Shown here one piece after another: positions 17,471 through 51,064 of a stretch of 64,000 bases of DNA. The notes beneath the pieces were generated by a model. It searched no databases. It saw only the letters and a program-made list of their open reading frames with translations, and was not told where the DNA came from. Numbering within the stretch: the stretch's first letter is position 1; every line of letters begins with the position of its first letter. The stretch spans positions 2,912,001 to 2,976,000 of the forward strand of contig OY762007.1 of NCBI GenBank assembly GCA_963665115.1, read 5' to 3'. The stretch comes from an uncultured Rivularia sp. (GTDB taxonomy: Bacteria > Cyanobacteriota > Cyanobacteriia > Cyanobacteriales > Nostocaceae). A program made the position numbers and the translations under genes.

Positions 17471-19675
17471 TCATACCTTAACTTTATTTGCCGAAGATTT
17501 TCCAGCCTCGGTTGCATCATCTGCATCAATTCTTTCTCTACTCACCTTGTAGTACTGTTGATAATTACTTTGAGAAGTAGGTGTGGACTCTTTAGATTTA
17601 TTCGCTACCAAACCTAAAATAGGAGTACCGCTAACTTGAAGTTCCTCTAACGCCTGTGCGAATGCAGTGCGTTTCAATTTACCTAAACCAGCTACCAACA
17701 TAACGCCATTAGTATTTGCTGCCAATAAGTTAGCATCAGCGAAACCAACTATAGGCGTAGTGTCATAAATTACTAAATCAAAGCTGCTATGTAGTTCGTT
17801 CATTAAGTCCTGCATTTTCACAGACGCTAACAATCTAGTAGAGTCTGGTGGAACCGGGCCAGCAGCCATTACATACAGATTATCTTCAAGGGGGGAGCGT
17901 TCAATCACATTGCTCCACTCCAATTCAGAAGAAATAATATCCGTTAAACCCTGGATATTCATCAATCCTACACGGTTGTGTATAGTAGGACAGCGGAGAT
18001 TTGCATCCACTAATAAGACTCTTTGTCCCATCGCTGCTGCGGCCAAAGCTAACTGTATAGCAACAGTAGTTTTACCGTCTTCTGGTGTTGCCGAACTAAC
18101 TACAAGCGAACGAATCGGTGTATCCGAACCCAGAAGAAGAATATTGGTGTAAAGAGAGCGAAAAACTTCAAAAAAGGCGGCGCGTGCTGTTTGATGAACT
18201 CCACTAGCTGCTCCATCTTGCTTGCTACTAGCTGCAAGTTCTTTGCTGAAAGGAACTACCCCCAATAACGGTAATCTAGTAGTTTCTTTCAAATCTTTAG
18301 AAGTGTAGAAAACATTGCTCAACTTGTCTACAATTAAAGCAGCACCCACACCCAATAACAAGCCTAAAGCTCCACCCAAAGCTAAGTTTTTTCTAGCACT
18401 TTGTGACATAGCTTCAGGATTTTCAACTTTAGTAAGTTGAGGATCTAGTAACTTCCAAGGCTGCTGTTTTTGAGACTTTTCAATTTCCAGGGCTTGCTGC
18501 TTGGTTAAAAACTGGTTTAGCCCTGTGGTAGCAATCTGTAACTCCCGCTGAATATTTTCGTAATCGCGGGTAACTGTTGCCAAATTTCTCAGTTCTGCAT
18601 TGAGCTTATCTACCTTGTCACCTAAAGATAGATCGCGAGCATATAACGTTTGGATGCGACTTTGAAATTCTTGTTGAACTCGCTGTTCTTCTGCATTCAG
18701 CATTGGAATCAAATTCGCTTTCCTTTGCCGTAAAGTCTGCATAGTTGGATTGATATCCGTAAATTTAGCAGACTCCGTTTTGACCTCAATCTCAACTTTC
18801 TGGATTTCGTCTAAGATTTTTTGGTAGCGAGGATTTTCACTCAGTATCGAATTACCTGCCCTCTCCGCTGGCTGCTGCGCTAATTCCTTTTGTAACTCCT
18901 TATACTGAGCCATCATTTGTTCGTACTCTACCCGGTTGCTTAATCGCTGTTGCGTCAAAGTAGCAATTTGACCGGACACTTCAGTTGCTTTCTGTGCGGG
19001 TTCAATCAGGTTGTTCACGCTTCGCAGCATTCGCAATTTATTTTGCAAGTCTTTAACCCGCTGTCTTAAGCCACCTTTAGTGATTCGTCCTTGAACAAAT
19101 TTAATAGCCTGATTAATGTCTTCCTGTCGTTCCTTTAAGCTGTACTCTAAATAAGATTGAGCAACTTCGTTTAAAACATCACTCACTAGTTGCTTGTCTG
19201 CGGCTACATATCCTACCGTTAAAATATTTTTCTGACTGGAGGCAATAATTAAACCCTTAACAAATGATTCGTATTCCAGATTTGGATACTTCGTCTGAAG
19301 CTTTTCTACAACTGAATCAAGTACTCGCGGGCTTTTTAAAACTTTAATTGTTGTTGCAATATCTTTTTCCGACTCCGGAAGTGCGATCGCATCCTTAGAA
19401 CCCAAGGTTTGAGGTACGTTTGATATAGCTTTACTTTCCCCAGTCACGGGTTCAGTTAAAATCTCAAACTGACCCTGATATATCGGAGGATCGGTTTCTG
19501 CTTTCAACACCGCAGCGGTTGCTACTACCCCGGTACAACCAACAATTAATAATGCACGCCGTCGCAGAGCCGCTCCAACTTGCCCTAAATTCAATCCACC
19601 TTCTTCAGCTTCATTCAAGGGGCTACCTGCTTGAGAAAAGAGGTAAGAATTTTTATCTGACTTCAACATAGTCAT
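17471..19675 (-). CDS. wzc: Wzc-family polysaccharide tyrosine autokinase/co-polymerase
   Basis: Walker A SATPEDGKT, VDANLR, IYDTTP, C-terminal Tyr cluster NYQQYY. Confidence 0.9.
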   Translation of the reverse strand: MTMLKSDKNSYLFSQAGSPLNEAEEGGLNLGQVGAALRRRALLIVGCTGVVATAAVLKAETDPPIYQGQFEILTEPVTGESKAISNVPQTLGSKDAIALPESEKDIATTIKVLKSPRVLDSVVEKLQTKYPNLEYESFVKGLIIASSQKNILTVGYVAADKQLVSDVLNEVAQSYLEYSLKERQEDINQAIKFVQGRITKGGLRQRVKDLQNKLRMLRSVNNLIEPAQKATEVSGQIATLTQQRLSNRVEYEQMMAQYKELQKELAQQPAERAGNSILSENPRYQKILDEIQKVEIEVKTESAKFTDINPTMQTLRQRKANLIPMLNAEEQRVQQEFQSRIQTLYARDLSLGDKVDKLNAELRNLATVTRDYENIQRELQIATTGLNQFLTKQQALEIEKSQKQQPWKLLDPQLTKVENPEAMSQSARKNLALGGALGLLLGVGAALIVDKLSNVFYTSKDLKETTRLPLLGVVPFSKELAASSKQDGAASGVHQTARAAFFEVFRSLYTNILLLGSDTPIRSLVVSSATPEDGKTTVAIQLALAAAAMGQRVLLVDANLRCPTIHNRVGLMNIQGLTDIISSELEWSNVIERSPLEDNLYVMAAGPVPPDSTRLLASVKMQDLMNELHSSFDLVIYDTTPIVGFADANLLAANTNGVMLVAGLGKLKRTAFAQALEELQVSGTPILGLVANKSKESTPTSQSNYQQYYKVSRERIDADDATEAGKSSANKVKV

Positions 19676-20587: not shown

Positions 20588-20659
20588 CTGGGGTGCTAGG
20601 ATTCGAACCTAGGAATGGCGAGACCAAAACCCGCTGCCTTACCACTTGGCGACACCCCA
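20588..20659 (-). tRNA. tRNA-Gln (TTG)
   Basis: Reverse complement TGGGGTGTCGCCAAGTGGTAAGGCAGCGGGTTTTGGTCTCGCCATTCCTAGGTTCGAATCCTAGCACCCCAG folds as a cloverleaf with anticodon TTG. Confidence 0.95.
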
Positions 20660-20986: not shown

Positions 20987-21307
20987 ATGTCATTTAGCAG
21001 GTCAGGCATCAACCTTAGCGTGTTTTTTTTGTCTCTAAAAGATTTTATTTTAGACAGATTCAAGCTGCAAAAGCATAAAACCCATGATTTTACTGAGTGT
21101 GTACCTGGAACAGACTACGTATTTGAAGTTGCAGAAAATCTTACAACAGCTTACATGACAGCGCGGGGTAAAGGTGTCAAAGCTGACGACTATATAGTTT
21201 TACAAATCGGCTCGGAATCTTATCGATATCAAGTAGAACAAATTGACTATTACTCGAACCCACCTGATATGTGGATGGCTTTAATCAAAAAAGTCACGAA
21301 CGATTAA
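20987..21307 (+). CDS. Hypothetical protein
   Basis: 106-aa ORF; plausible small beta-rich domain (G.GVK..DYIVL..Y.VEQIDYYSNP.DMW). Confidence 0.6.
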   Translation: MSFSRSGINLSVFFLSLKDFILDRFKLQKHKTHDFTECVPGTDYVFEVAENLTTAYMTARGKGVKADDYIVLQIGSESYRYQVEQIDYYSNPPDMWMALIKKVTND

Positions 21308-21902: not shown

Positions 21903-22205
21903 ATGATAACTTCAACAACAGATTCCATGATTTCGGAAAAATCTATAATAGTATCTGTGAAAAATCAAATTTCTTCCGATCTTGGTGGTGAAGCGGTGAT
22001 TTTAAACATGAACACCGGAACTTACCACGGTTTGAATGAAGTGGGTGCTTTTGTATGGAACTTGATTGATCAACCGCAAGTCGTAAAAGATATTCAACAA
22101 AAGCTTTTACAAGAGTACGAAATTGAAGCTTTAATTTGTACTAAAGATTTGTTTGCACTGCTTAACGATTTGCACGGTGAAGGGTTAATTGAAGTTAAGA
22201 ATTAA
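21903..22205 (+). CDS. Lasso peptide B1 / PqqD-family RiPP recognition element (copy 1)
   Basis: SDLGGEAVILN...G.YHGLNEVG..VW.LI; close paralog of 28618-28935. Confidence 0.9.
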   Translation: MITSTTDSMISEKSIIVSVKNQISSDLGGEAVILNMNTGTYHGLNEVGAFVWNLIDQPQVVKDIQQKLLQEYEIEALICTKDLFALLNDLHGEGLIEVKN

Positions 22206-22645
22206 ACGCCTGTGTAATTGTTTTAAATTTCTAGGTGTAATAGGTGCTTTCGATTAACTTCCGTATTTTACTTTCAGTTATCAGATTAGATTAGAACTGT
22301 GGTTTCTACCGTTTCGAGTTTTATTAAAAAAAGTTAGTTTACTCAAACTGTATTTAGGTCACGTATATTAAACCAAATTTCTGTCAGTAAAGTTATTTCG
22401 GCTGTAAATATAGCTACTTGCTATACACTTAGGCAATCAAAGTATTTCACACTATCGCGTTTACTACTAAGGTGTTGATGAGTCGTTGTGCTTGTCTTCT
22501 TGAACTTACAGGTATTATTTTCTGAGTAAGTAAAACTTTCTGGCTCATGCTGGGATTAAATACAAGAAAAGGGTTGTAATTAATTCCGTAAGTAAACCTT
22601 TAACGATTTATCTCACTACCATCTCTCGAAGGAATCAGATTATGA
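22201..22645 (+). pseudogene. Degraded lasso B2 leader peptidase
   Basis: Fragments IRLELWFLPFRVLLK, AVNIATCY..QSKYF, TTKVLMS, AHAGIKYK..VVI and RFISLPSLEGIRL* align with the intact B2; start is ATT instead of ATG; several frameshifts. Confidence 0.85.
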
Positions 22646-24672
22646 GCGGTATCGTAGGTATTTGCTACCTGGATAAAAGTCCTGTAGAACAACAAAATAT
22701 AGCGCGAATGATTGATACATTGGCGCATCGGGGACCTGATGGTGCAGACATCTGGGTAGATGGTTCTGTGGGCTTAGGACACCGGATGTTATGGACTACT
22801 CCTGAGTCTTTGATAGAAAAACTGCCTTTAGTCAATCAAAGGGGCGATATAGTTCTTACTTCTGATTGTCGCATAGATAATCGCGAAGAGTTGATTGCTG
22901 CATTACAGTTAAATAATCGTTCCTCCGAGAAAATTACTGATAGTGAATTAGTTCTGGGTGCCTATGAGAAATGGGGTGAAGAATGTCCGGAACATTTGTT
23001 AGGTGATTTTGTCTTTGCCATTTGGGATAAGCGAAAACAGACTTTGTTTTGTGCTAGAGATCATATGGGGGTTAAGCCATTTTATTATTTCCATCAGCCG
23101 GGTAAACTGTTTGCTTTTGGTAGCGAGATAAAAGCGCTGTTATCTTTGCAGGATGTACCGCGAAGGCTGAATGAAATTAAGGTAGGCGACTATCTAGCAT
23201 CAAATTTTCAAGATAAAGTTGAAACCTTTTATCAAGATATCTTTCGTCTTCCACCTGCGAGTTGTTTAACTTTAAATCGGAAAGGATTGCAAATTCGTTC
23301 TTATTGGTCTCTCGATCCAGAGCGCGAATTATGTTTAAGTTCTGATGAGGAGTATGCAGAGGCATTGCAGGAAATCTTTGCAGAATCAGTACGGTGTCGG
23401 TTGCGTAGCGCTTTTCCTGTAGGTTCTCATCTCAGTGGTGGACTGGATTCTTCTTCTGTCACCTGTATGGCACGGAAAATTTTAGAAGAAAAGAATTCTA
23501 AGTTACATACTTTCTCTAATATATTTGATACAGTTACTCAATGTGACGAACGCCCTTTTATCGAAGCTGTACTTGCTCAGGGCGGAATGAATCCTCACTA
23601 CGTCCACGGCGATGAACTCGGACCTCTATCAGACTTAAAACGAATCTTTAAATATCACGACGAAGTATTTTTTGGTCCCACTCATTTTCTAGTTTGGGTA
23701 GCCAACCTTGCAACAGAGAATCAAGGTATCCGAATTGTACTTGATGGCTTTGACGGCGATACCACAATTTCTCACGGTGATGGTTATTTTACCGAACTAG
23801 CACACAAAGGACAATGGGCTGCTTTTGCCAAGCAAGCGAATGATATTGTTCAACGTGCGGGGGGTGGTTCACCTTTAAATATTCTGAGGAGTTCTGGTCT
23901 TACTTATGTAGAAGACTTAGCACGAAAATCAAACTGGCTTGGTTTTGCCAAAGAAACTCGTCAGATATCCAAATACTTTGATATCTCCCAGCAACAGATT
24001 CTTGTGCAACATGGCTTAAAGCCATTGATTCCTGAGTCTGGGCGGCTAGCTTGGCGAAAACTACGCGGACACAATGAGCCGATGCTTAACGCCAATTGGC
24101 TATTTAACCGCAGCTTTGCTCAAAAAATCGGCTTGAAAAAACGTATTAAGGCTTTAGATGAATCTCAGTCTCATCTTCCCGTGACAGAAAGGGAGTATCA
24201 CTGGCGTTATCTAACTTGGGGCTTAGTCGGGTATGCGATGGAGACGTTGGATAAATCATATGCAACCTTTTCAATCGAAGCCCGTCATCCATTCATGGAT
24301 AAACGATTAATTGAATTTTGTCTCTCCTTACCGCCGCAGCAAAAGCTCAACCAAGGATGGACTCGCTTAGTTATGCGCCGTGCCATGCAGAATATTCTTC
24401 CCGAACAAGTGCAGTGGCGACAAACTAAATCTAAAATGACTGCTAGCTTTATACATGGGCTACTCAATCTAAACCGTCAGGTGTTAGATGATTTGATGCA
24501 AAATCACCTTGAGCCAATCGCTACCTACGTAGATATAAATGCTCTGCGTCAAGGCTATGAAAAATTGACATCTAGTAGCAAGATTGGTTCTTATGAAAAT
24601 TCCATATTAATTGAAATATGGAAAGCAGTTACCCTTAGCTTCTGGTTGCGTCACAGCCAGATTGAGTATTAA
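22642..24672 (+). CDS. Lasso peptide cyclase (isopeptide bond-forming, AsnB-like), copy 1
   Basis: MSGI N-terminus (no catalytic Cys1), HRGPD, SGGLDSS, DGFDGD, PFMDKRL; flanked by B1 and precursor. Confidence 0.92.
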   Translation: MSGIVGICYLDKSPVEQQNIARMIDTLAHRGPDGADIWVDGSVGLGHRMLWTTPESLIEKLPLVNQRGDIVLTSDCRIDNREELIAALQLNNRSSEKITDSELVLGAYEKWGEECPEHLLGDFVFAIWDKRKQTLFCARDHMGVKPFYYFHQPGKLFAFGSEIKALLSLQDVPRRLNEIKVGDYLASNFQDKVETFYQDIFRLPPASCLTLNRKGLQIRSYWSLDPERELCLSSDEEYAEALQEIFAESVRCRLRSAFPVGSHLSGGLDSSSVTCMARKILEEKNSKLHTFSNIFDTVTQCDERPFIEAVLAQGGMNPHYVHGDELGPLSDLKRIFKYHDEVFFGPTHFLVWVANLATENQGIRIVLDGFDGDTTISHGDGYFTELAHKGQWAAFAKQANDIVQRAGGGSPLNILRSSGLTYVEDLARKSNWLGFAKETRQISKYFDISQQQILVQHGLKPLIPESGRLAWRKLRGHNEPMLNANWLFNRSFAQKIGLKKRIKALDESQSHLPVTEREYHWRYLTWGLVGYAMETLDKSYATFSIEARHPFMDKRLIEFCLSLPPQQKLNQGWTRLVMRRAMQNILPEQVQWRQTKSKMTASFIHGLLNLNRQVLDDLMQNHLEPIATYVDINALRQGYEKLTSSSKIGSYENSILIEIWKAVTLSFWLRHSQIEY

Positions 24673-24813
24673 AACAGGTGCATCCCCAATATATATCTAA
24701 CTTCTATTTGTATTATTATCTCATTTCTATCTGTACTCTTATTAAAGCGGGGTATTTCCCAAAAGGAGTACCTCTATCGCGAAACACAAACAAAAACCAC
24801 AGGAATTCAAACA

Positions 24814-25005
24814 ATGAAGAAAACTTACGAAGCACCCAAACTCACCAACCACGGTACAGTAGCTCAAATGACCAATTTCTTTGGTAAAGGAGATGGAGAC
24901 ACTTTAATTGGTCCAGGTCCCAATGATGACACAGGTAACCCTGGTGGTTCCATCGATGCTTGTGCAACATTCGACCAGGGCAACTGCTTCGGTAAAGATA
25001 ATTAA
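24814..25005 (+). CDS. Lasso peptide precursor A1 (21-aa leader + 42-aa core)
   Basis: Leader YEAPKLTNHGTVAQMT matches Y-x-x-P-x-L-x3-G-x5-T; AGGA RBS; core Asp at positions 6 and 8. Confidence 0.9.
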   Translation: MKKTYEAPKLTNHGTVAQMTNFFGKGDGDTLIGPGPNDDTGNPGGSIDACATFDQGNCFGKDN

Positions 25006-25030
25006 TTAAGTTTATGAAAGAAGCAAGCTG

Positions 25031-25368
25031 TGCAAATTTGACTGCAACTCGAATGTACATTAAAGGCTTACTTCTGACAAATTCAGCATTACCGAACAAG
25101 TTCTAATCTAATATGAGTACAATACTCATGCTTCAGGGAATTCATCTAATTTGATATCTGTATCTACCATCGAGAGTTCAAAGTCTGAATCAATTCACTT
25201 TGATAAAAGACTTTGAACCTCGACACCTAACAAAGCAATGTCGATTAATTCGTACCAATTTATTTGCTTGAGAAGTCAAAGTAAGCAATTGTAAATTCGA
25301 CTGCAACTCGAATGTACATCTAAAACTTAACTCTGACAATTTCAGCATTACCGAACAAGCTCTAATCT
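25031..25368. repeat. 79-bp direct repeat pair (25031-25109 and 25290-25368)
   Basis: Ungapped alignment, 69/79 identical by manual count, 259-bp period. Confidence 0.9.
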
Positions 25369-25553
25369 GTCCTCAATATAGCATTAATTAATTAAGTTGC
25401 AGGTGTAATTAAATACGTCTGGCTACTGCGTGATGTCTTTTTTTAGAAGTTAATTGAATTTAACATCCTACTTAAGACAGAAAAATCATATTTTTATCTA
25501 AACAATATCCTTACTTTCTACCTCTTAAGCAAGATGTAATTTACCAATTAAAT

Positions 25554-26489
25554 ATGTTCACCTATTCTGCCTACAATCTTCGTATTGACTCTGAAATTTT
25601 CTTCTCCGAACTTGTAACTTCTCAGGAGGACTTAAGCCGAATCGAACAACTACCCCAAATAATCATACAGCAACGTGAAATCAATCGCTCAGAAATTAAA
25701 AATGCGAATGGTGGCGATCGCTTTGTAGGATATTTAGAAATAAATAAATTACAGTCGTGTAGGTTTTTAGTAGAATTTGGTCGCAAGATTGTGATTGAGC
25801 CTGTCTTAGGAATCGCAGACAATATTATTCGTCCCTGTATTCTCGGTCCGATATTTAGCGTACTGCTGAGGCAAAGAGGACTGCTGGTTGTCCATGCTAG
25901 TTGTGTTGGTATTGATGATGAAGCTGTTGCATTCCTTGGAAATTCAGGATGGGGTAAGTCAACCTTGGCTAATGCTTTTTATAACCAAGGATATCCCCTA
26001 CTTACCGATGATGTAATGGCAATTGAGATTAACAAAGGAAATGAAAGCAATGCAATTACTTTTCCTGCTTATCCCTGTGTGAAACTGCTGCCAGATTCGG
26101 CTGCCAGTTTAGGATACGATTTTGAGGAACTAGCTGTAATTAACTCAGGTTTACTCAAGCGTCATAACAGTCTTACTGAAAAATTTGTACAAAAGCCTTT
26201 ACCCGTCAAGCGAATATACGCATTAGAAAATATTGCAGCCCCTCGTCATGAAGTGCAAACGCTTTCTTCTCAAGATGCACTTGTAGAATTGGTTCGTCAT
26301 TCTCGTGTTACGAATTTATTGACTACTCCTGAATTCACTAGTGCTCATTTGCATCAATGTACGCAACTGATAAAAAAAGTACCTGTTTATCGTTTGAGAA
26401 GACAAAAAACGCTAGCCGCACTTCCCGATTTAGTAAAACTTATAGAAGATGACGTTGCCAAAAGTAATCGTGTAATATCATATACCTAA
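25554..26489 (+). CDS. HPr-kinase-like lasso peptide kinase (PadeK-type), copy 1
   Basis: HAS, Walker A GNSGWGKST, LTDD. Confidence 0.85.
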   Translation: MFTYSAYNLRIDSEIFFSELVTSQEDLSRIEQLPQIIIQQREINRSEIKNANGGDRFVGYLEINKLQSCRFLVEFGRKIVIEPVLGIADNIIRPCILGPIFSVLLRQRGLLVVHASCVGIDDEAVAFLGNSGWGKSTLANAFYNQGYPLLTDDVMAIEINKGNESNAITFPAYPCVKLLPDSAASLGYDFEELAVINSGLLKRHNSLTEKFVQKPLPVKRIYALENIAAPRHEVQTLSSQDALVELVRHSRVTNLLTTPEFTSAHLHQCTQLIKKVPVYRLRRQKTLAALPDLVKLIEDDVAKSNRVISYT

Positions 26490-26583
26490 AAAAACTTGTT
26501 GTAAGCTAACTTAGCTACTTGCTAGAGATAACTTATTTGAAGTTTAATAACTAATTTCTGTATCGATAAAAACTATTCCAACA

Positions 26584-28398
26584 ATGCAAGCAGGCAAATT
26601 AAAAGAAAAATTCCAAAGTACGCAACGCCTATTGCCTGCTTTGCGACTGGTTTGGCAAAGTAGCCCTCGCTGGACGATCGCCCGCGTAGTAATTTTGATT
26701 GTTCAAGGTATTCTGCCTGTAGTGGGAATTTATCTGGGCAAACTAATTATAGATACAGTAGCAGCCAGCCTCACTACTGCCGATAAAACCGCAGCTTTTA
26801 ATAATGTAATATTTTTCGTTATCTTAGCAGCAGCAATCGCCCTATTAACTAACCTTGCTAACTCCCTCGGACAATTAGTTACTACCGCTCATTCCCAGCG
26901 AGTAACCGATTATATGCAGGGAATTATTCAAGCGAAATCAATTGCGGCAGATTTAGAATACTACGAAAATCCCGTATACTACGACGTATTACAAAGAGCG
27001 CAACAAGAAGCGCCTTACCGACCTCCGCAAATCCTAAATCGTTTGGCACAGGTTGGTCAAAATGCGATTACTTTAGTTGGGATGATTGCTTTACTGCTGT
27101 CGCTGCACTGGGGAATACCCGGTGTTCTTTTTGTTGCATCCTTTCCGGCTATGGTAGTGCGAGTAAAATATTCTCAGATAATGTATCGCTGGCAGCGCAA
27201 AAAAACACCAATGGAACGTCAGGCAGCTTACTTGGGCTATATGCTGACGGTAGACCAGTTTGCTAAAGAAATTCGTTTATTTAATTTAGGTTCTCACTTC
27301 TCTCAAGCGTATCTTCGCATCCGCAAACAGATATATAAAGAAAGTCTTGCGATTCTAACCGGACGTTCTTTAGCTAGTTTTGCAGTTGAGGCGATCGCCG
27401 CTATTTTAATTTTTGCAATTTATTCTTATATTATTTATCAAACTATCAACGGTGTGCTGCGTTTGGGGGATTTAGTCCTGTACTATCAAGCGTTGCAGCG
27501 GGGACAGGGCAATATCAAAGGTTTATTGAACAGTTTATCTGGACTTTATGAGGATAACTTGTTTCTGGCGAATCTCTACGAATTCCTTGATATTAAACCC
27601 AAGTTAATCGATCCTCCCAACCCCGAACCAATTCCTCATCCAATGAAAACTGGGATTGAATTTAAAAATGTCGGTTTTCAATATTCCACAACTACCCGTC
27701 AGGCACTTAAAAATATTAACCTGACAATTAAACCTGGGGAAGTAGTAGCCTTGGTGGGGGAAAATGGTTCAGGTAAAACTACTTTAATTAAACTTTTATG
27801 TAGATTGTACGACCCTACCGAAGGCAGAATTACCATCGATGGTATCGATCTAAGTCAATTTAAAACTGAAGAATTACGCCGTCAAATCAGCGTGATTTTT
27901 CAAGACTATGCAAAATATCACTTTACTGCTCAGGAAAATATTTGGTTGGGAAACATAGATTTACCACCGCAAAGCGACAGCATCATTAAAGCAGCACGGC
28001 GTTCTGGTGCGGATGATGTAATAAAAAAATTACCCAAAGGTTACGATACCATCTTGGGTAAATTATTTGACAAAGGCGAAGAACTTAGTATTGGACAGTG
28101 GCAAAAAGTTGCTTTAGCGCGGGCATTTTTGCGAGATTCCCAGCTAATTGTTTTGGATGAACCCACCAGCGCAATGGACCCCAAAGCAGAATATGAAGTG
28201 TTTGAAAAGTTCCGCCAATTAATTAAAAATCAATCCGCGATTTTGATTAGCCATCGCTTATCTACCGTGAAAATGGCCGATCGGATATACGTCATGGATA
28301 ATGGAACAATTGTCGAAGGTGGTACCCATCAGGAGTTGATGAAGTTGAAGGGTACCTACGCTCATTTGTTTGAAATACAAGCTAGTCAGTATATGTAA
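26584..28398 (+). CDS. ABC transporter, fused permease/ATPase (peptide exporter type)
   Basis: TM domain, GENGSGKT, LSIGQWQK, LDEPT, ISHRL. Confidence 0.92.
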   Translation: MQAGKLKEKFQSTQRLLPALRLVWQSSPRWTIARVVILIVQGILPVVGIYLGKLIIDTVAASLTTADKTAAFNNVIFFVILAAAIALLTNLANSLGQLVTTAHSQRVTDYMQGIIQAKSIAADLEYYENPVYYDVLQRAQQEAPYRPPQILNRLAQVGQNAITLVGMIALLLSLHWGIPGVLFVASFPAMVVRVKYSQIMYRWQRKKTPMERQAAYLGYMLTVDQFAKEIRLFNLGSHFSQAYLRIRKQIYKESLAILTGRSLASFAVEAIAAILIFAIYSYIIYQTINGVLRLGDLVLYYQALQRGQGNIKGLLNSLSGLYEDNLFLANLYEFLDIKPKLIDPPNPEPIPHPMKTGIEFKNVGFQYSTTTRQALKNINLTIKPGEVVALVGENGSGKTTLIKLLCRLYDPTEGRITIDGIDLSQFKTEELRRQISVIFQDYAKYHFTAQENIWLGNIDLPPQSDSIIKAARRSGADDVIKKLPKGYDTILGKLFDKGEELSIGQWQKVALARAFLRDSQLIVLDEPTSAMDPKAEYEVFEKFRQLIKNQSAILISHRLSTVKMADRIYVMDNGTIVEGGTHQELMKLKGTYAHLFEIQASQYM

Positions 28399-28411
28399 GG
28401 TTCGTATTTAG

Positions 28412-28467
28412 GTTCGTAGTAAGGACTTTAGTCCTCTGGCTTTGGGACTAAAGTCCTTACTACGAAC
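28412..28467. repeat. Perfect 23-bp inverted repeat (REP-like palindrome)
   Basis: GTTCGTAGTAAGGACTTTAGTCC ... GGACTAAAGTCCTTACTACGAAC. Confidence 0.9.
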
Positions 28468-28617
28468 AAAAAAATGATTATATAAAGACGTAACAACGTC
28501 ATTTTAAAGAGTATATAAAGTGTAAAAAAAAACATAGTACTATCACTATATTAAAGACTATATTTAATACAGCAGAGCAAACAAGGCCAACCAACTAGCA
28601 TTCAACAGTTACAGAAA

Positions 28618-28935
28618 ATGACTTATCCACAACCTGACGTGCGCGAAATTGCAGAATCATCAATAGTAGTAGCTGCTGAAGAGCAAATCTCTTCCGACCT
28701 TGGCGGCGAATCAGTTATCCTGAACATGAAAACAGGAGTCTACCACGGTTTAAATGAAGTGGGTGCGCGGGTGTGGGATTTGATTGAGAAGCCAAAAGCT
28801 GTGAAAGAGATCAAACAGGTACTCCTCAAAGAGTACGAAGTTGAGCCAGATGTTTGCACCAACGACCTGTTCTCACTATTAAATAATTTAAAAACCGCAG
28901 GGCTAATTAAAGTAACAAATGAAACTGCTGCGTAA
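28618..28935 (+). CDS. Lasso peptide B1 / PqqD-family RRE (copy 2)
   Basis: SDLGGESVILN...G.YHGLNEVGARVWDLI. Confidence 0.92.
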   Translation: MTYPQPDVREIAESSIVVAAEEQISSDLGGESVILNMKTGVYHGLNEVGARVWDLIEKPKAVKEIKQVLLKEYEVEPDVCTNDLFSLLNNLKTAGLIKVTNETAA

Positions 28936-29356
28936 GCTTTGGAATCTGAGAAAAGTTAATTTTTACTTCTTATTTGTTACTTACTTTTTACTAGGAGCAA
29001 TTCGGTTAGGGTTGCTGTTGCTGGAATTTCGCATCTTATTAAAGATAATAAATAAACTTATTACGATAAATTTGCCACTCCCTAATGCTCGTTTAAGTCA
29101 AATTCTTTGGGGTGTCAATGTTGCAACCCGCTATATGCCAGGTGGTGCAAAGTGTTTAGCAAGAGCTTTAACTACTCAAGTATTGATGAGTCATAGTGGT
29201 TTTCCCCCGGAATTGTGCATAGGGGTTGCTAAAGGAGAGAAAGGAGAATTAGAAGCGCACGCTTGGATTAAATATCAGGGATACGTTGTTATCGGTTATC
29301 TACCAGATCTACCACGCTACATTCAACTACCATCCCTTGAAGGAATTAAATTATGA
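28919..29356 (+). CDS. Lasso peptide B2 leader peptidase (transglutaminase-like)
   Basis: Catalytic motifs AKCLARAL and AHAW; overlaps B1 and is coupled to the cyclase by ATGA. Confidence 0.92.
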   Translation: MKLLRKLWNLRKVNFYFLFVTYFLLGAIRLGLLLLEFRILLKIINKLITINLPLPNARLSQILWGVNVATRYMPGGAKCLARALTTQVLMSHSGFPPELCIGVAKGEKGELEAHAWIKYQGYVVIGYLPDLPRYIQLPSLEGIKL

Positions 29357-31281
29357 GCGGCATCGTAGGTATTCACTACTTTGACGAACGTCCTGTAGAC
29401 CGCGAAAACTTAACAAAAATGGTTGATATATTGGCGCATCGCGGCCCAGATGGTGCAGATATCTGGGTTGATGGGTGCGTTGGTTTGGGACACAGGATGT
29501 TATGGACTACTCCCGAATCACTTATAGAAAAGCTACCTTTGGTAAATCAGAGGGGCGATTTAGTAATTACAGCAGATGCTCGGATTGACAATCGCGATGA
29601 ATTGATAGCTGCTTTACAGATAAATAATCGTCCTGCTGATAAGATTACAGATAGCGAGCTGATACTGGCAGCATACGGGAAATGGGGCGAAGATTGCCCA
29701 AAGCATTTATTAGGTGACTTTGCATTTGCGATTTGGGATCGGCGTAAGCAGATGTTATTTTGCGCTAGAGACCATTTTGGGGTGAAGCCTTTCTACTATT
29801 ACTCTGCTAACAATACTTTTGTTTTTGGTAGCGAGATAAAAGCAATCTTTTGTTTACCAGAGGTTCCTCGTGAGATTAATGAGGTAAAAGTTGCTGAGTA
29901 CTTATCTATAGAAACAGACGATAAAAGTATCACTTTTTATAATGACATTTTGCGGCTTCCTCCTGCCTGTAAAATGATTGTAAAGAGTAAAACTGTGGAA
30001 TTACAGTCTTATTGGTCTCTTGATTTTACTCGCGAGTTGCGATTGAGTTCGGACGAAGAATATGCAGATACTTTCCGTAAAATCTTTACTGAAGCAGTAC
30101 GCTGTAGATTGCGTAGCGCTTTTCCTATAGGCTCAATGTTAAGCGGTGGCTTGGATTCTTCGTCTATCACCTGTGTAGCACGGAAGTTCATCGCAGAGAA
30201 AGAAGAAAAAAATAAATTACACACTTTCTCAGCAGTTTTTGATAAAGTAACCGAATGCGATGAGCGTGTTTTTCAAGATGCAGTTCTTGCCCAAGGAAAT
30301 ATTGAACCGCATCACTTTCATGCTGATGGATTCAGTCCTTTAACCGATTTTGAACAAGTTCTTTGGCATCAAGATGAAGCTTATTCTGCTGGTAACTTAT
30401 ATTTAAATTGGAATCTTTATAAACCTGCTAGAAAAAATGGTGTTCGCGTTATTTTAGATGGATTTGATGGAGACAGTACCGTATCTCATGGTTTAGGATA
30501 TTTAACTGAATTAGCCAGTAAGGAGCAATGGTTTCAATTAGCTATACATATAAGAAATTACTGTACAAGAATAGGTAAACCTTGGCAAGAAGACTTATGG
30601 AGTTGGATATGGGTTTATAAAATTAATCCTATTATTTGCAAATCTCGCATTCTTACTAAAGCATGGCGCAAATCACAAAAATTGTTTCAAAAAAATCAAC
30701 TTCAAAAACCAGCTTGGAGAAGATTAATTAATTCAGAATTTGTTAAGCAAATTAACTTAATTGAGCGTCTAAGAAATCAACCAAATCCCCCAACAACCGA
30801 ACGGGAAACACAATACCGTTGTTTGATGGAAGCAGGTATGGTTCGTACTCTGGAAAATTTAGATAGAACAGCAAAAGCATATGGAATTGAACTTCGGTTT
30901 CCTTTCTGGGATAAGCGGCTTATAGAATTCTGTCTATCTTTACCTCCGGAGCAAAAGATATCAAAGGGTTGGACTCGGATGGTAATGCGTCGAGCGATGA
31001 AAGATATCCTACCGCAAAAAGTGCAATGGCGAGTCGGTAAATCAAATATGCATCCAGGATTTGAAAGAGGATTGCTCGAATTTGAGCGATTGCGCTTAGA
31101 GCAAATCATTTTACATAACCCGAAAGTAATTGAAAAGTATGTAAATATCGCTGCCCTACAGCAAGCATATCACCGCTACCTGTCTAAACAAGCAACAGTG
31201 GAAGAAGTTAACTCTATTTGGAAAGCTTTTTCTCTAGCTCTGTGGTTAGAACACAAGAATTTGCCAAAACAGAGCTTGTAA
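29353..31281 (+). CDS. Lasso peptide cyclase, copy 2
   Basis: MSGI, SGGLDSS, DGFDGD, PFWDKRL; paralog of 22642-24672. Confidence 0.92.
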   Translation: MSGIVGIHYFDERPVDRENLTKMVDILAHRGPDGADIWVDGCVGLGHRMLWTTPESLIEKLPLVNQRGDLVITADARIDNRDELIAALQINNRPADKITDSELILAAYGKWGEDCPKHLLGDFAFAIWDRRKQMLFCARDHFGVKPFYYYSANNTFVFGSEIKAIFCLPEVPREINEVKVAEYLSIETDDKSITFYNDILRLPPACKMIVKSKTVELQSYWSLDFTRELRLSSDEEYADTFRKIFTEAVRCRLRSAFPIGSMLSGGLDSSSITCVARKFIAEKEEKNKLHTFSAVFDKVTECDERVFQDAVLAQGNIEPHHFHADGFSPLTDFEQVLWHQDEAYSAGNLYLNWNLYKPARKNGVRVILDGFDGDSTVSHGLGYLTELASKEQWFQLAIHIRNYCTRIGKPWQEDLWSWIWVYKINPIICKSRILTKAWRKSQKLFQKNQLQKPAWRRLINSEFVKQINLIERLRNQPNPPTTERETQYRCLMEAGMVRTLENLDRTAKAYGIELRFPFWDKRLIEFCLSLPPEQKISKGWTRMVMRRAMKDILPQKVQWRVGKSNMHPGFERGLLEFERLRLEQIILHNPKVIEKYVNIAALQQAYHRYLSKQATVEEVNSIWKAFSLALWLEHKNLPKQSL

Positions 31282-31500
31282 AAATATGTATGAAATTTAT
31301 CCTATCAAGAACCCGGTTTTTTTACTAATTACACAACAAAAAAATTATGGTTTGACTAAAAAACCGGGTTTCTTAAGATTTATTAATCCAAGATATCAAT
31401 TTAAATCAAGTTATAGAACGTTTTACTTTACGTCCAATCTTTATATGAAGCGAAATATAATTCGCACCAAAAATCTCGTAAACAATAAGGACTTCAAACT

Positions 31501-31669
31501 ATGAATTCTCAAATTAAAAAGTCTTACATCGCACCTGAATTGACTACTCACGGTAACGTTGAGGAAATCACTTTACAAGGGGTCTTTACAGAATGCAGAT
31601 GTACCTAACGGACCTAATGGCACTGCTAACTGTTTTGCAGGTAGTACAGATCCATCTTGTATCTCATAG
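31501..31669 (+). CDS. Lasso peptide precursor A2 (not in ORF track; +1 frameshift in G-run 31579-31582)
   Basis: MNSQIKKSYIAPELTTHGNVEEITL leader with AAGGA RBS; removing one G gives core QGSLQNADVPNGPNGTANCFAGSTDPSCIS*. Confidence 0.85.
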
Positions 31670-31830
31670 TCTAAGCAATTGCTACTGATAAAAAAGTAGC
31701 TTCTGATTAGGTAAATGACAGGAAGTAGATGTCTATAATATTGGCATCTACTCCCATTCATTTACTCTTACAAACTATAGAGCACAAGTTTTAGCTTATT
31801 AAATAATTGATTCTATTAAAAGAAAAACAA

Positions 31831-32751
31831 ATGTATTTTTATAAAGCATACGGTCTTTTATTTCGCTGTAGCTTTGATTTACCAGAATTTATCACTACTG
31901 AAGAAGCAGAACCTGATGTTGTAATCACTCGGGGTAAGATAGAACATTCTTTTCCCGAGCATATACCCGCCCAAGGCTACTTTTATGCTACAGAAAATGA
32001 GGCATATTTTGCTTGGCAGACAATTGGAAAATTTTTAGTCAGAGATGGTAAAGAGATTATTATCGAATCTTTACAAACTGCTGAAGAAAGAATGATTCGT
32101 TTACCGCTTGTGGGAACTATTTCAGCGGTACTGCTTCATCAACGCGGGTTATTAGTTTTACACTCTAGCGCTGTGGCTATCGACGGAAAAGTAGTTTCTT
32201 TTGTTGGTGAAAAAGGGTGGGGTAAGTCAACAATGGCTGCAACCCTTTACGGAAGGGGACATATTCTTATGTCTGATGATGTAGTTGCTTTAGACATGAG
32301 TAACCCAACAAAACCTATGGTTATTCCTGGTTTCCCACAGTTCAAGCTATACCCTGAAGCCGCAGCTTTTTCTCTTGGAGATAACCCTGAAACGTTACCC
32401 ATAGTTGCTTCTGGCTATGACAAGCGGATTCGCCGCATTACTGAGAATTTCTCAGTACAATCTTTTCCTCTAACTCATATCTTTGTTTTAGGACAAGGTT
32501 CGGTACCAGAAATCAAGCCACTGTCAAATCAAGAGTCTTTAATACAATTAATTACTCATTCTTACGCAAGTAGATTTGGTCAGAAACTGTTAACTGGAAA
32601 CAGAGCGGCACAACATCTTCATAATTGTACGTCATTAATTAAAAATATATCTATTTATAGTTTAGAACGTCCCAAATCTTTGCCATTATTATCAGAAATA
32701 GCACAGTTAGTAGAGACGCAAACTCAAAAAATAGCTCAAATATTAGTGTAG
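31831..32751 (+). CDS. HPr-kinase-like lasso peptide kinase, copy 2
   Basis: LHSS, Walker A GEKGWGKST, MSDD. Confidence 0.85.
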   Translation: MYFYKAYGLLFRCSFDLPEFITTEEAEPDVVITRGKIEHSFPEHIPAQGYFYATENEAYFAWQTIGKFLVRDGKEIIIESLQTAEERMIRLPLVGTISAVLLHQRGLLVLHSSAVAIDGKVVSFVGEKGWGKSTMAATLYGRGHILMSDDVVALDMSNPTKPMVIPGFPQFKLYPEAAAFSLGDNPETLPIVASGYDKRIRRITENFSVQSFPLTHIFVLGQGSVPEIKPLSNQESLIQLITHSYASRFGQKLLTGNRAAQHLHNCTSLIKNISIYSLERPKSLPLLSEIAQLVETQTQKIAQILV

Positions 32752-32898
32752 TTATTAACTTGCCGATACAAAAATATAATCTGGCAAGTTAATTAGTTTT
32801 ATTACAAGTATAATCATAGAGTGCGGCTCAAAAGTTAAATTAATTACATGGAATTCCAAATAACATAATATAAATTTCAAAAACCAACAATTACACCC

Positions 32899-34029
32899 AT
32901 GAAAACTTTATCTAAACCCGATACTAAAAACCAGATAATCAATACTTGTCCCGAAATAGAACTACTTCTATCTTCCCTTAACCCCGATATTAATGATGCT
33001 GTAACAGAACGCATCAAAGCATTAGTTAAACAAAACATTGATTGGCAATACTTAACCCAAACAGCAGATAGACATGGGGTATTATCTCTACTATATTCTC
33101 GCATCAATAATATTTGCCCAGAAGCGGTACCAGAACTACTCTTAAATCAATGGCGCAACAGTTTTCAATACGTTGCACAACGCAACTTGTTTTTAACAGG
33201 TGAACTTGTCAATCTTCTGAAATTATTAAAAGAACAAAATATTGTAGCTTTACCTTATAAAGGACCTATTTTAGCGACTTTAGTTTACAAAAATGTGGCT
33301 CTGCGACGTTTCGGAGATTTAGATATTATCGTACAACAAAAAGATATCTTTGCAGTACGAGAACTATTAATAGCCCAGGGATATCGACTTTACAAAGAAA
33401 TGACTGATGCGGAGTTGGTAAAATACCTAAACTCTAAAACCGAGCATACTTATGATTTTATTCATGAAGATAAAAATGTCTTTTTAGAAATTCACTGGCG
33501 AATTGCACCGAAGTATATCACTCCTATCGAAGCGAAAGATTTGTGGCAAGATTTAGAATCTTTTTCTTTAGCTGGTACAACTATAAACAACTTACCTTTA
33601 GAAGATTGGCTACCAATTCTCTGCGTGCATGGTTCCAGACACGTATGGGAACGTTTATCATGGCTGTGCGACATCGCAACGTTGATTCATAAAAATCCAA
33701 ATATAAATTGGGAAAAAGTTGTCCAAAAGGCTAATCTGTGGGGTTGTCAGCGGATGCTATTTTTGGGACTTTATATGGCACATGATTTATTTGGTGTTAG
33801 CTTACCCACAGAAATTTGGCAGCAAATGAAAAAGGTTGAGCCTATATTAAGTGGTATTGCTCCCCAAGTATATAAGCAGCTTTTTGGCGAAGTTAGAACT
33901 TCTGATAAATTTATGGGAAGAACTCTTTATCACATTCAGGTAAGAGAACGTTTAAACCATAAAATTTTGTATATTCAATCTTTTATTTACTGGTTGGTTA
34001 AAGGTAAAAAGGAGATAGTTGATAAATAA
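32899..34029 (+). CDS. Nucleotidyltransferase family protein (PadeN/PsmN-like)
   Basis: PYKGP, RRFGDLDI, EIHW, HG..H.W.RL.WLCD; follows the lasso kinase. Confidence 0.85.
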   Translation: MKTLSKPDTKNQIINTCPEIELLLSSLNPDINDAVTERIKALVKQNIDWQYLTQTADRHGVLSLLYSRINNICPEAVPELLLNQWRNSFQYVAQRNLFLTGELVNLLKLLKEQNIVALPYKGPILATLVYKNVALRRFGDLDIIVQQKDIFAVRELLIAQGYRLYKEMTDAELVKYLNSKTEHTYDFIHEDKNVFLEIHWRIAPKYITPIEAKDLWQDLESFSLAGTTINNLPLEDWLPILCVHGSRHVWERLSWLCDIATLIHKNPNINWEKVVQKANLWGCQRMLFLGLYMAHDLFGVSLPTEIWQQMKKVEPILSGIAPQVYKQLFGEVRTSDKFMGRTLYHIQVRERLNHKILYIQSFIYWLVKGKKEIVDK

Positions 34030-34184: not shown

Positions 34185-35579
34185 TTAAACATCTGCATCT
34201 GTAGCTAAATATGCGGCAAGCAAATGCTCGCGCTTCGCAATTCGTCGCTCGTGCCATTGTAGACCTATAACAATCGCTATTACTATTGTTTGAGCGGGTT
34301 CTTCCATCTGAGTAATAATCCAACCATAGACAAACAGCGTCATCAGATTAAATCTAGAAAAGTCATCCTTAGCAATACGACTCCACACGATATAGCAAAG
34401 GTACAAATAAATCCCCAAGCCTAAAAGCCCTAAATCTCCCCAAATACCAGCCCAGCTAAACATAGGAATAAACAAAGAAGATTCCTGAACAAGCCAATCA
34501 TTTTGAAGTGCATTCCAAGTTTCGATGCTGGCTGGATGAATTGTAGCCCCTAAAGGAACCAGCATATTTTGATAATCTCGGAGTACCCATCCCCCGACTC
34601 GTCCTATAGTATGTCCCGGTCCAAGACCTAATAACCAATTTAAGGGAGACTTGTAATGCGAAAGAACAATGCGAATACCTGCAAATTTACTATTCACAGC
34701 CTGACCATCAGGACCGTAAAGATGAGTTCTTTCCGACCAATATTTAATAGCATCTAAACCTTCTATATTTAAGTTTTGCACTGCCCAAACAAAGATTCCT
34801 ACAACAAGAATAAAGCTGATAGCATAAGTTAGTGTTTTGCCTAAGTTATTGAATTTAGTAAATAATAAAAGTAACCAGGCTATAAAAAATGTTAAAATAA
34901 TTTGCTTTGAATCAGAAATCAAAACTTGATAAAATGCTGCTATTAACCAAAATATTCGTATCCATATAGGAGCAATTTTAGCATTAAGAAAATAGTACAA
35001 AGCAACAGCTAATGAAATAGAGCAAGATACATAATTACCTGCTCCTGATAAATAAAATACACCTTGAACAGCATCTTGAGGGGTATACGGTAATCGAGGA
35101 ATCATACCAGAATCTATCAAAGGCTTCTGAATAAAAGCAGTCAATAAGTTGATTACGCAGGCAACTAGCAACCAAGTCCTGATTTTTTGATAATTTTCTT
35201 TGGAGAGAGGTATACAAATTATTGCCAGTAGTACTATAAAGGGTTCGGCAAGTATCATGTAATCCAAAAATATATTAATCTCGCCAGCCTTATTTAATAA
35301 TGCGCTGGCTATCATAACTCCAAGTAAGAGGAGACAACCAGTCATAAGTTCCCATGAAATTGCTATTTGTGTTTTGTTGTTAGTACGGCTTTTTGAAATG
35401 GCAACAGCAAGAGTAAAGGGAGCTATTAAAAAGTGTAAAAAATTGATGGCAGATGGCGCACCTGCCGCTGCAATAATTCTTGGGAAAAAAGCAGCTATAA
35501 ATGTTATCAATATTAACGTTACGCTTGTAAGATATATTGGTTTTTTTTCTTTTATAACCTGTTGTTTTATCGAGTACAT
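34185..35579 (-). CDS. Multi-pass membrane protein, Wzy/ligase-like
   Basis: About 11-12 hydrophobic segments with a large loop containing GLGPG; last gene of the GT operon. Confidence 0.6.
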   Translation of the reverse strand: MYSIKQQVIKEKKPIYLTSVTLILITFIAAFFPRIIAAAGAPSAINFLHFLIAPFTLAVAISKSRTNNKTQIAISWELMTGCLLLLGVMIASALLNKAGEINIFLDYMILAEPFIVLLAIICIPLSKENYQKIRTWLLVACVINLLTAFIQKPLIDSGMIPRLPYTPQDAVQGVFYLSGAGNYVSCSISLAVALYYFLNAKIAPIWIRIFWLIAAFYQVLISDSKQIILTFFIAWLLLLFTKFNNLGKTLTYAISFILVVGIFVWAVQNLNIEGLDAIKYWSERTHLYGPDGQAVNSKFAGIRIVLSHYKSPLNWLLGLGPGHTIGRVGGWVLRDYQNMLVPLGATIHPASIETWNALQNDWLVQESSLFIPMFSWAGIWGDLGLLGLGIYLYLCYIVWSRIAKDDFSRFNLMTLFVYGWIITQMEEPAQTIVIAIVIGLQWHERRIAKREHLLAAYLATDADV

Positions 35580-35767
35580 TTAATTTATCGTTTTAGTTAC
35601 AGGGTGGTTTCAACAATTTAGATGTATGACTTACGTAAAGCCTCACTTTATAAGGGGGATTCGCGGGATCAGAATTTGTGGAACACTAGTTTTATCGTTC
35701 AGATTGCGAAAATCCTAAGATGGTTAGTTACAAATCATTTTAAACTTCAATTAGACGGTAAAGCCTT

Positions 35768-36886
35768 TTATTTTAAAGCAGAATACAAATTTAGATATTG
35801 AAACGCTACTTTTTCTTTAGAAAAGCGATAATCTGGAGAAGTTTTCTCTAAATCAGTCTGGATAATATTGTGAATAGCTTCTGTTAAATTTTTGACAGGT
35901 TCGCTTTCTAAATTAAAATAAGTGCAGTTTAAATTACCAATTTCTTTAAAGATTGGAATATCAGAACAGACCACTTTACAGCCAAGATAAAGTGCTTCAG
36001 CCAGTGGCAAGCAAAAACCTTCAGTGGAAGAAGGGATTACCAGAAGTTTACAGTTTTTATATAGCCAGCATAATTCTTCGTCATCTATCGATGAAAGCAT
36101 ATGTACGCTGTCTTTTAAAGAAAGGGTGTCGATCAAATTACAAAGATTTTCTGTCTCCGGTCCGGGACTTCCAACTAAAACAAGTTTTATTGATTGTAAG
36201 TAATTATTTTTTAATAATAGAGAATATGATTGTATTAAAATATTTAAATTTTTATTTTTACGATGCTGGGCTACAGCAAGTAAGAAAGGAGTATTAATAG
36301 AATAACTTATATTTTGAGGAACTCTGGGTTCTACATTACTAAAATCCACATAATTGTAAACTACAGCAGTTTTTTTATGTTTATCAACATAAGGAAAAAA
36401 CTTTGTAAGTGATTCTGAAGTCTGATGAGAAACACATGAAAGCCCATCACTATTTTGAATACACTGCTTTAAAAATAATTGATTGAACAAAACATTTGGA
36501 TAACCAAAGTTTTCTGGAAATTCATAAGGATACAAGTCATGAATAGTGGTAACAACAGGACAAGAACAAAGTGAGCGAATAAATGGTAATGGAAAAGAAT
36601 GATGAATAATATCCGATTTTAGTTGTTTGGCAAGTTTTGCTAAACCATACATAAACCAAGCATTTCGAGAAAACGAGCTATTTTTGATGTCTATATAAAC
36701 TATTTTTATTTTTTTAGAAGACAGATTGAATGATGTTTGAAAATAATCTTTTTGCCATACTCCTATTACCAAAGTAACTCGATTAACTTGTTCAGTATCA
36801 GCAAGACATTCCGCCAGATTAGCAGCATGTCTACAAACTCCAGTAGGTTTAGTCGGTCTGTGTAAAGCAGCAATCAATATATGCAT
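35768..36886 (-). CDS. GT4 glycosyltransferase
   Basis: TIHDL, RKN, PSSTEGFCLPLAEA, SDIP.F.E. Confidence 0.9.
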   Translation of the reverse strand: MHILIAALHRPTKPTGVCRHAANLAECLADTEQVNRVTLVIGVWQKDYFQTSFNLSSKKIKIVYIDIKNSSFSRNAWFMYGLAKLAKQLKSDIIHHSFPLPFIRSLCSCPVVTTIHDLYPYEFPENFGYPNVLFNQLFLKQCIQNSDGLSCVSHQTSESLTKFFPYVDKHKKTAVVYNYVDFSNVEPRVPQNISYSINTPFLLAVAQHRKNKNLNILIQSYSLLLKNNYLQSIKLVLVGSPGPETENLCNLIDTLSLKDSVHMLSSIDDEELCWLYKNCKLLVIPSSTEGFCLPLAEALYLGCKVVCSDIPIFKEIGNLNCTYFNLESEPVKNLTEAIHNIIQTDLEKTSPDYRFSKEKVAFQYLNLYSALK

Positions 36887-36941
36887 AAGAGCTTATGAAC
36901 TATAAAATTAGAATATAAATTGGGATCTACAAAAGCGATCG

Positions 36942-38198: not shown

Positions 38199-38265
38199 GT
38201 TTATAGCACCTCCTTATAATTTAGATCGCTTTTGGATAAATAAGAACAAATAAGAATTGATATAA

Positions 38266-39396: not shown

Positions 39397-39580
39397 TACT
39401 AACCTCTAACCCTCAAAACAAAATATTATTTGCATTTATTTAAAAGCACTATTCTAAGTCCTACGCAAAATTAATTGTGTATTGTCATTGCCAGGAACGA
39501 AGCATATGTCCTATCGGACACGCTCCGCTAACGCAGGGACTTGAAGTTTTCAGAATGTTAAATTAATTTTGCACGAGTAC

Positions 39581-51041: not shown

Positions 51042-51064
51042 TTTTGATAAATATTAAGTATTTT

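Follow-up and report, generated by a model that had tools for sequence, protein, structure and literature searches.

In the pseudomycoidin (psm) cluster of Bacillus pseudomycoides, a precursor (A), a lasso cyclase (C), an HprK-like kinase (K), a split leader-binding protein and leader peptidase (B1 and B2), a nucleotidyltransferase (N) and an ABC exporter occur together, and PsmN was required for the addition of a hexose to phosphoserine in Escherichia coli (PMC6993621). In relatives of this system the kinase, recognizable by a His-Lys-Asp-Asp motif, acts on the precursor before cleavage (PMC9266682), and B1 speeds the kinase reaction (PMC10368454). Non-terminal Ser targets are known for BsfK (PMC10368454) and LppK (PMC13381572), in both cases Ser3. 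For Bacilli, embedding in capsular polysaccharide loci and co-expression with an exopolysaccharide gene are already on record, and possible tailoring by neighboring enzymes and a biofilm role have been put forward as proposals (PMC13381572). A genome-based account also exists of a Nostocales lasso cluster of the same type (PMC9332814). Here we analyze a tandem lasso peptide cluster at positions 21903-34029 of a 64,000-nucleotide stretch (hereafter, the window) of contig OY762007.1 from an uncultured Rivularia sp. (assembly GCA_963665115.1).

The cluster consists of twelve lasso elements, all on the forward strand, in the order B1a, decayed B2, C1, A1, K1, ABC, B1b, B2, C2, A2, K2, N (Table 1). 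An original prediction, made from the window alone, had proposed this order and strand, a pseudogene of B2 in module 1, the kinase-plus-nucleotidyltransferase architecture, a hep/wzc block on the left and a convergent glycosyltransferase (GT)/Wzm-Wzt operon of about 25 kb on the right. Each of these points was borne out by open reading frame (ORF) mapping and profile matches: K1 and K2 carry His-Lys-Asp-Asp, N matches PF14907, the left flank holds HepA-like, HepC and wzc genes, and the right flank a minus-strand block of 25.6 kb. Searching the whole genome gave a single intact B2, a single N, a pair of K genes and a pair of precursor-like ORFs, each located in this cluster. We consider it probable, though by a modest degree, that one B2, one ABC exporter and one N serve two exchangeable cassettes, whose predicted products are a 30-residue peptide with a terminal phosphoserine and a 42-residue peptide phosphorylated at Ser25. 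That the machinery is shared is likely, given the single intact B2 and single N in the genome and the presence of a B2 remnant in module 1 of all eight other tandem loci in the genus.

The two modules have diverged to 52% identity between C1 and C2, 34% between K1 and K2, and 65% between B1a and B1b. The decayed B2 retains 61% DNA identity to the intact gene over 388 columns (E 7e-21), and its multi-frame remnant is the same in the three sequencing runs compared there (X1-X3), so the decay is real and this is a true pseudogene. Both kinases score below the cut-offs of the HprK-like models, yet retain His-Lys-Asp-Asp; the predicted structure of K1 (predicted local distance difference test score, 93) adopts a PEPCK/HPrK fold, and a search for structural relatives gave only weak sequence matches for K1 and no solved relative for N. 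The nearest named relatives of K1 (78-83% identity) are labelled Rivularia sp., Plectonema cf. radiosum and one unclassified cyanobacterium, with remoter ones in Calothrix, Tolypothrix, Rhizonema, Westiellopsis and Iphinoe. The likeness of N to PsmN is one of family, seen in the PF14907 match and a G-D-x-D motif rather than in an alignment to PsmN itself.

By every test that was run the locus is a lasso cluster: the cyclase, B2 and RRE-type B1 are all present (NF033535, NF033537 and NF033536/PF05402), and both precursors have a Y-x-x-P-x-L leader, Thr(-2) and an Asp at core position 8. It is, however, not a strict member of any of the paeninodin, Bsf or linear polyphosphorylated peptide (LPP) groups. 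Its gene set and the C-terminal Ser of A2 resemble pseudomycoidin; unlike the psm cluster, it has two cassettes for which B2, ABC and N are probably common, its A1 lacks a terminal Ser, each core has two Cys, and the host is a cyanobacterium (PMC6993621). The paeninodin family and adjacent LPP clusters of Bacilli likewise place a kinase, a nucleoside triphosphate transferase and an ABC exporter beside polysaccharide genes and include tandem systems for ribosomally made, modified peptides, but paeninodin RREs, which are confined to Bacillota, prefer a Trp leader, whereas both leaders here have Tyr; LPP clusters have a SipW-like peptidase and no cyclase, whereas each module here has a cyclase and no such peptidase is found among the cluster ORFs (PMC13381572). 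The Bsf system of Bradymonas sediminis shares K, N, B1/B2, C and ABC, and its precursor, which lacks a terminal Ser, is phosphorylated at a non-terminal one (PMC10368454). That target is the ring residue Ser3 with Ile(-2), whereas in A1 position 3 is Gly, position -2 is Thr and the Ser is residue 25 (PMC10368454); the Bsf combination of Ser3 with Ile or Val(-2) is absent here, since both precursors have Thr(-2) and the Ser3 present in A2 is missing from its closest orthologue. Genes of the cluster match NF033528 (lasso_cyano), NF033535 and NF033537 at or near their cut-offs, but these models give no product, kinase site or context. Pandonodin, which belongs to class IV of the lasso peptides, also has a long tail and two Cys outside the ring, but has 33 residues as against 42 predicted for A1, and the available part of the source mentions no kinase for it (PMC13352647). 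Finally, in the davasin system the GT2-family enzyme IgtG glycosylates a lasso Ser, whereas the GT genes here form a separate, convergent operon (PMC11912497).

The two precursors differ in where a kinase could act. A1 combines a 21-residue leader with a predicted 42-residue core that has ring Asp8, Cys29, Cys37 and a terminal Asn; its sole core Ser, Ser25, lies within a G-S-x-D motif. The monoisotopic masses predicted for the A1 product are 4172.78 Da as the lasso, 4170.76 Da once the disulfide is closed, 4250.73 Da with a phosphate in addition and 4412.78 Da with a further hexose; a form trimmed after Ser25 would have 2373.05 Da, or 2453.02 Da if phosphorylated. The intact A2 allele (see below) encodes a predicted 30-residue core with Asp8, Cys19, Cys28 and the C-terminal Ser30. 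The original prediction had proposed disulfide-containing products, and two Cys are present in each core sequence, outside the ring. That prediction's description of the products as two large peptides applies to A1 but not to A2, whose 30 residues are within the known range, and its assignment of phosphorylation to a C-terminal Ser fits A2 but not A1.

We gathered 94 cyclases with their neighboring precursors and kinases. C1 falls in a clade of 51 of these (support 0.987), and cores were readable for 48 modules in the clade and 39 outside it. A G-[ST]-x-[DN] motif beyond core position 15 is present in 43/48 clade cores versus 3/39 outside; in a shuffle control, 2000 shuffles gave a mean of 4.9 and a maximum of 12. 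Ser-ending cores show the opposite distribution (2/48 in the clade, 26/39 outside), and the A2 of the window is one further core, beyond these 39, with both the motif and a terminal Ser. Clade cores are 32-58 residues long. The five that lack the strict motif still have a Ser or Thr followed by Asp one or two places on, and in two Rhizonema precursors Thr replaces the motif Ser. Among 30 aligned motif-bearing clade precursors, Y5, P8, G14, T20 and D29 (precursor numbering) are invariant, and within the core only the ring Asp and the Gly-Ser pair are. An independent kinase tree of 85 sequences, built by quick search, has a branch (SH-aLRT 95) that sets these 48 modules apart from the rest, and Arg106 is found in 45/48 clade kinases, while other kinases mostly have Tyr or His there. 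Precursor type matches enzyme clade. The simplest reading of these sequences, and a likely one, is that K1 phosphorylates A1 internally at Ser25. The motif is retained in clusters without N (G090, G500, G461 and G479; G and L numbers are our identifiers). We also considered that Asp at +2 mimics a C-terminal carboxylate, an idea weakened by the Asn found at that place in 6/48 cores. Separately, one genome of a different family (G050, L080:10356-11538) holds an array of five near-identical precursors whose cores are very like that of A2 in the window, which suggests transfer across families.

Comparison with congeners revealed that the cassettes are exchanged. The cyclase matched in 17/26 congeners, eight of which have the same adjacent tandem. 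In these eight, identity to the window is 74-97% for B2, 91-96% for ABC and 81-90% for N, as against 55-91% for C1, 40-83% for K1, 52-82% for C2 and 34-86% for K2; in the wider set of 12 congeners compared, ABC is at 91-96% in ten and at 65% in the remaining two. The modules vary independently: G007 shares module 2 with the window, G021 shares module 1 (its orthologues of C1, K1 and A1 are 80-91% identical), and G009 shares neither. In all five congeners tested, a stretch of 80-93% DNA identity ends within a cyclase or shortly ahead of one and is taken up again just before ABC or N; because identity breaks and resumes at these borders, the exchanged unit is the 3' part of the cyclase with the precursor and kinase, set on a constant scaffold. 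C-A-K cassettes are thus exchanged between congeners while B2, ABC and N stay conserved. A plasmid search with C1 at E 1e-100 gave no match.

In the window assembly, the leader frame of A2 stops at 31608 and the Ser-ending tail lies in a different frame. We compared four sequencing runs with the window, X1-X4 over 31000-33000 and X1-X3 over 6000-25600. The extra base near 31579 in A2 is present in X1 and absent from X2, X3 and X4, and indels at 7173 and 13142 occur only in the window and X1, X2 and X3 being without them. Over 6000-25600 the runs and the window differ by two substitutions, both within the tRNA. Several indels and no other substitutions in a single data set indicate sequencing error, and the intact A2 allele is the usual one, since X2-X4 lack the extra base and X1 and the window alone carry further indels. 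The A2 frameshift is probably an assembly error, and we rejected a true A2 pseudogene as the likely reading. X1 is possibly the source of the window assembly, so that a recent A2 mutation in one isolate may also account for the break. The other two indels, which split the HepA-like gene (7173) and shorten a GT4 gene (13142), are probably assembly errors as well.

Taken together, these data suggest the following model. B1 would bind the Y-x-x-P-x-L leader, with shared B1 and B2 processing both Tyr-type leaders, and K1 and K2 would each phosphorylate their own precursor before cleavage, at Ser25 and Ser30, respectively. Cleavage by B2 would follow, two residues past the conserved Thr; C1 and C2 would join residue 1 to Asp8, and the Cys pair of each core would close a tail disulfide. 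N may add a hexose to the phosphate, as in pseudomycoidin, and the ABC exporter presumably exports the products. The product of the neighboring operon is most likely a polysaccharide of its own, exported by Wzm/Wzt, and the operon's link to the peptides is probably one of shared regulation and nucleotide-sugar supply rather than dedicated tailoring. In the sheath or biofilm, the peptides would most likely serve as extracellular signals or as factors in competition that vary by strain; the pattern of cassette exchange fits strain-specific signaling or competition better than a constant structural role.

Several considerations weigh against this model. The ecological role is drawn from the exchange pattern, and gene content is what the window provides, activity, transcript and product being predictions. 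The reader of the internal motif could be the cyclase, a protease or a receptor instead of the kinase, since C, A and K travel together and, among the gathered loci, no clade member with full context lacked a kinase. Related genomes are, moreover, non-independent samples. The A2 of the window also carries G-S-T-D and Ser3, which makes the K2 target ambiguous, although its closest orthologue has the terminal Ser only. At 42 residues, the A1 core exceeds the 33 residues of the largest lasso peptide named in the available part of a review (PMC13352647), so threading and full-length survival are uncertain. By analogy with LppN, which was inactive in a heterologous host (PMC13381572), N may need a partner.

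The internal position of Ser25 would have another explanation if a host protease trimmed the A1-type tail after the conserved Ser, leaving an ordinary 25-residue lasso with a terminal phosphoserine and making the Cys-bearing extension a follower peptide. The motif Ser lies at a median core position of 27 (range, 20-38), which equals the median core length outside the clade (27), where most cores end in Ser, and in all 21 two-Cys clade cores both Cys follow the motif. We nevertheless judge this improbable: the cassettes examined have no protease gene that moves along with them, conservation extends to residue +2 whereas the extension itself may be anywhere from 4 to 28 residues long, and clade kinases have residues of their own, such as R106, that suggest a different substrate context. 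More improbable again is that the glycan neighborhood is incidental, with an inherited ancestral insertion beside tRNA-Gln and wzc of which, in this strain, one module or both would be in decay or lack phosphorylation. A tRNA gene does adjoin the site, the B2 of module 1 is a pseudogene, this assembly has a broken A2, and many homologues lie among unrelated genes; but C1, K1 and A1 are intact, with the G021 orthologues described above, the A2 break is missing from 3/4 runs, and loss of the first B2 is common to all eight tandem congeners, whose C1 genes stayed open.

How closely the cluster is tied to its glycan neighbors can be judged from its distribution. The gene content of the right-hand block (GT2/GT4, UDP-galactopyranose mutase, Wzt, Wzm and WecG) varies between congeners, and wzc borders the cluster in most site-resident relatives. 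The 106-residue gene at 20987-21307, our marker for the site, is present in 94/151 family genomes, often beside wzc and the lasso site; its product has no Pfam or NCBIfam match, and we rejected it as a pathway member because 25 sampled family genomes carry it without any cyclase. Cyclases over the cut-off occur in 77/151 family genomes (37/65 genera) and in 14/401 phylum-wide, and lie within 15 kb downstream of the marker in 35 of the 77. Of 60 other cyclase loci, 48 were read and 12 left out, as were 24/35 marker-site genomes; many of the 48 are the same wzc/GT site without the marker. Loci were scored by the presence of a glycan gene within three ORFs, nine cut by contig ends being dropped and G374 counting as negative though GT41 and epimerase genes adjoin it. 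Scored in this way, all 12 loci in the genus, each with N, have glycan neighbors, as do 25/30 N-bearing versus 3/20 N-less loci in the rest of the family and 1/6 versus 2/4 in other families; the background in this genome is 10.5%. Twenty of the 25 represent one inherited site, and the other five lie in four different contexts (G457, G498a/G524a, G498b and G536). Within this family, N tracks glycan loci above background, in few independent events.

The synteny with wzc and GT genes that the original prediction proposed to check holds in part: position is kept across many heterocystous genera, but 22/50 readable family loci outside the genus have no glycan gene within three ORFs. GT genes also follow the marker without lasso genes in three of six empty sites examined (G005, G015 and G455), the remaining three being uninformative or without recognizable GTs. 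Random genomic contexts, which that prediction had named as a refutation, were in this sense partly found. Neither the lasso genes nor the glycan operon strictly needs the other, and because the GT operon persists alone and many homologous clusters are without glycan neighbors, decoration or anchoring by the neighboring GTs is only a proposal. In two genomes, G452 (L143) and G469 (L151), the cluster keeps wzc beside it while both N and the GT block are missing, a natural contrast pair.

These distributions bear on the possibility, in essence that of the original prediction, that the glycan operon is a functional partner of the cluster, with its GTs extending sugars on the phosphoserine, or N coupling the peptide to sheath polysaccharide, to yield an envelope-bound structural glycopeptide. 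We regard this as unlikely. The excess of N-bearing loci with glycan flanks, the four further contexts and the contrast pair all agree with it, and the same pairing in Bacilli shows synchronous expression (PMC13381572), while a GT2 enzyme is able to glycosylate a mature lasso peptide (PMC11912497). Yet most of the family signal stems from one inherited site and is not repeated in other families, the GT operon runs on the opposite strand and is also kept where lasso genes are missing, PsmN was sufficient for hexosylation in E. coli (PMC6993621), and no ligase or anchoring enzyme was identified. Slightly more doubtful is a variant in which long lassos of 32-58 residues, with phosphoserine in the internal G-S-x-D motif, are rapidly exchanged at a conserved sheath-polysaccharide locus of heterocystous cyanobacteria, and N glycosylates them or couples them to the strain's own polysaccharide, so that they act as strain identity tags.

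The mode of working proposed here is like that of pseudomycoidin and Bsf; its chief departure is a widespread subfamily of long peptides for which phosphorylation at an internal Ser is predicted. The account of the Bacilli systems, in its available portion, does not describe the internal tail motif (PMC13381572). In the literature searched, which included few subscription papers and no supplements, we came across neither a characterized lasso product from a cyanobacterium nor any reference to cassette exchange, to the conserved site or to the internal tail motif; the motif or its context in cyanobacteria may already be visible in the supplements of PMC13381572 or in RODEO datasets. If the model is correct, the internal-Ser clade would add a third class of kinase site and lasso cores beyond 33 residues. 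The exchanged cassettes amount to naturally matched sets of cyclase, kinase and precursor on an unchanging B2/ABC/N scaffold, a resource for engineering and for studies of specificity. With the polysaccharide-locus pairing now in a second phylum, the role of phosphorylated lassos becomes testable in genetically tractable cyanobacteria, where natural N-plus and N-minus clusters can serve as contrasts.

Table 1. Features of the lasso cluster and its borders (window coordinates)
Feature	Position	Strand	Basis or remark
Wzc-type polysaccharide co-polymerase/autokinase	17471..19675	-	TIGR01007 over cut-off, Wzz domain; left border of site, context
tRNA-Gln	20588..20659	-	ARAGORN; context
106-residue protein, site marker	20987..21307	+	Outside lasso pathway
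B1a, RRE/PqqD leader-binding protein, module 1	21903..22205	+	PF05402 E 1.7e-18; NF033536 77.1 bits vs cut-off 80
Decayed B2 leader-peptidase pseudogene	about 22210..22643	+	Fragments in several frames
C1 lasso cyclase, internal-Ser clade	22642..24672	+	NF033535 1030 bits vs cut-off 525
A1 precursor	24814..25005	+	NF033528 42 bits vs 33
K1, HprK-like kinase	25554..26489	+	H114, K135, D152, D153; clade-typical R106
ABC exporter	26584..28398	+	PF00664 + PF00005; sole exporter of cluster
B1b, RRE/PqqD	28618..28935	+	NF033536 81.6 vs cut-off 80
B2 leader peptidase, intact	28919..29356	+	NF033537 passed
C2 lasso cyclase, terminal-Ser group	29353..31281	+	NF033535 937 bits vs cut-off 525
A2 precursor, probably frameshifted by assembly error	31501..31669	+	Leader matches NF033528, E 1e-7
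K2, HprK-like kinase	31831..32751	+	H111, K132, D149, D150
N, nucleotidyltransferase-fold protein, PsmN-like by family	32899..34029	+	PF14907 E 1.5e-65; G-D-x-D motif
Glycan block, convergent	34185..59763	-	Membrane protein, GT4/GT2, UDP-Galp mutase, HAD, PRPP synthase, epimerase, Wzt, Wzm, WecG; context

Promoter and terminator scans returned hits at chance level (53 versus 54.1 and 14 versus 11.1, respectively), so operon limits were not set by them. A hairpin with 33-bp arms 3' of ABC (28402-28477) was rejected as a specific terminator, being a dispersed repeat with 151 matches in the genome. Between A1 and K1 lies a 79-nucleotide direct repeat (25031-25109 and 25290-25368; 87% identity), with a similar stretch in G003 and one weak partial match elsewhere in the genome.

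Other cyclase loci hold further candidate modifying genes. Proteins of about 405 residues with a C-terminal PqqD/RRE and an N-terminal part outside Pfam (L034:10689-11900, L155:9376-10593 and L160:7236-8444) adjoin ABC or K in internal-Ser cassettes and are candidates for a new tailoring enzyme. At L081 (G050) and L082 (G060) the cyclase lies between two N genes, and a motif search found no precursor there. The cyclase locus of G180 shows no B1/B2; just upstream of its cyclase, the opposite strand has genes for an aldo-keto reductase, a HopA1-family protein and an APH kinase (L090:11983-15280), possibly another peptide-modifying set. JmjC oxygenases and S-adenosylmethionine methyltransferases are inserted in some cassettes (L155:15083-16339, L166:8346-9554, L167:8875-10131 and L037:14474-15259).

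Farther out in the window, a hormogonium-polysaccharide acetyltransferase gene, HpsU (1731-2321, over cut-off), indicates that another glycan system borders the region. Among the HAD-like genes at 45148-48659, the pair at 46640-48659 looks split: G009, G032 and G035 have a single gene of 672-734 residues in its place, and G003 has the same split as the window.

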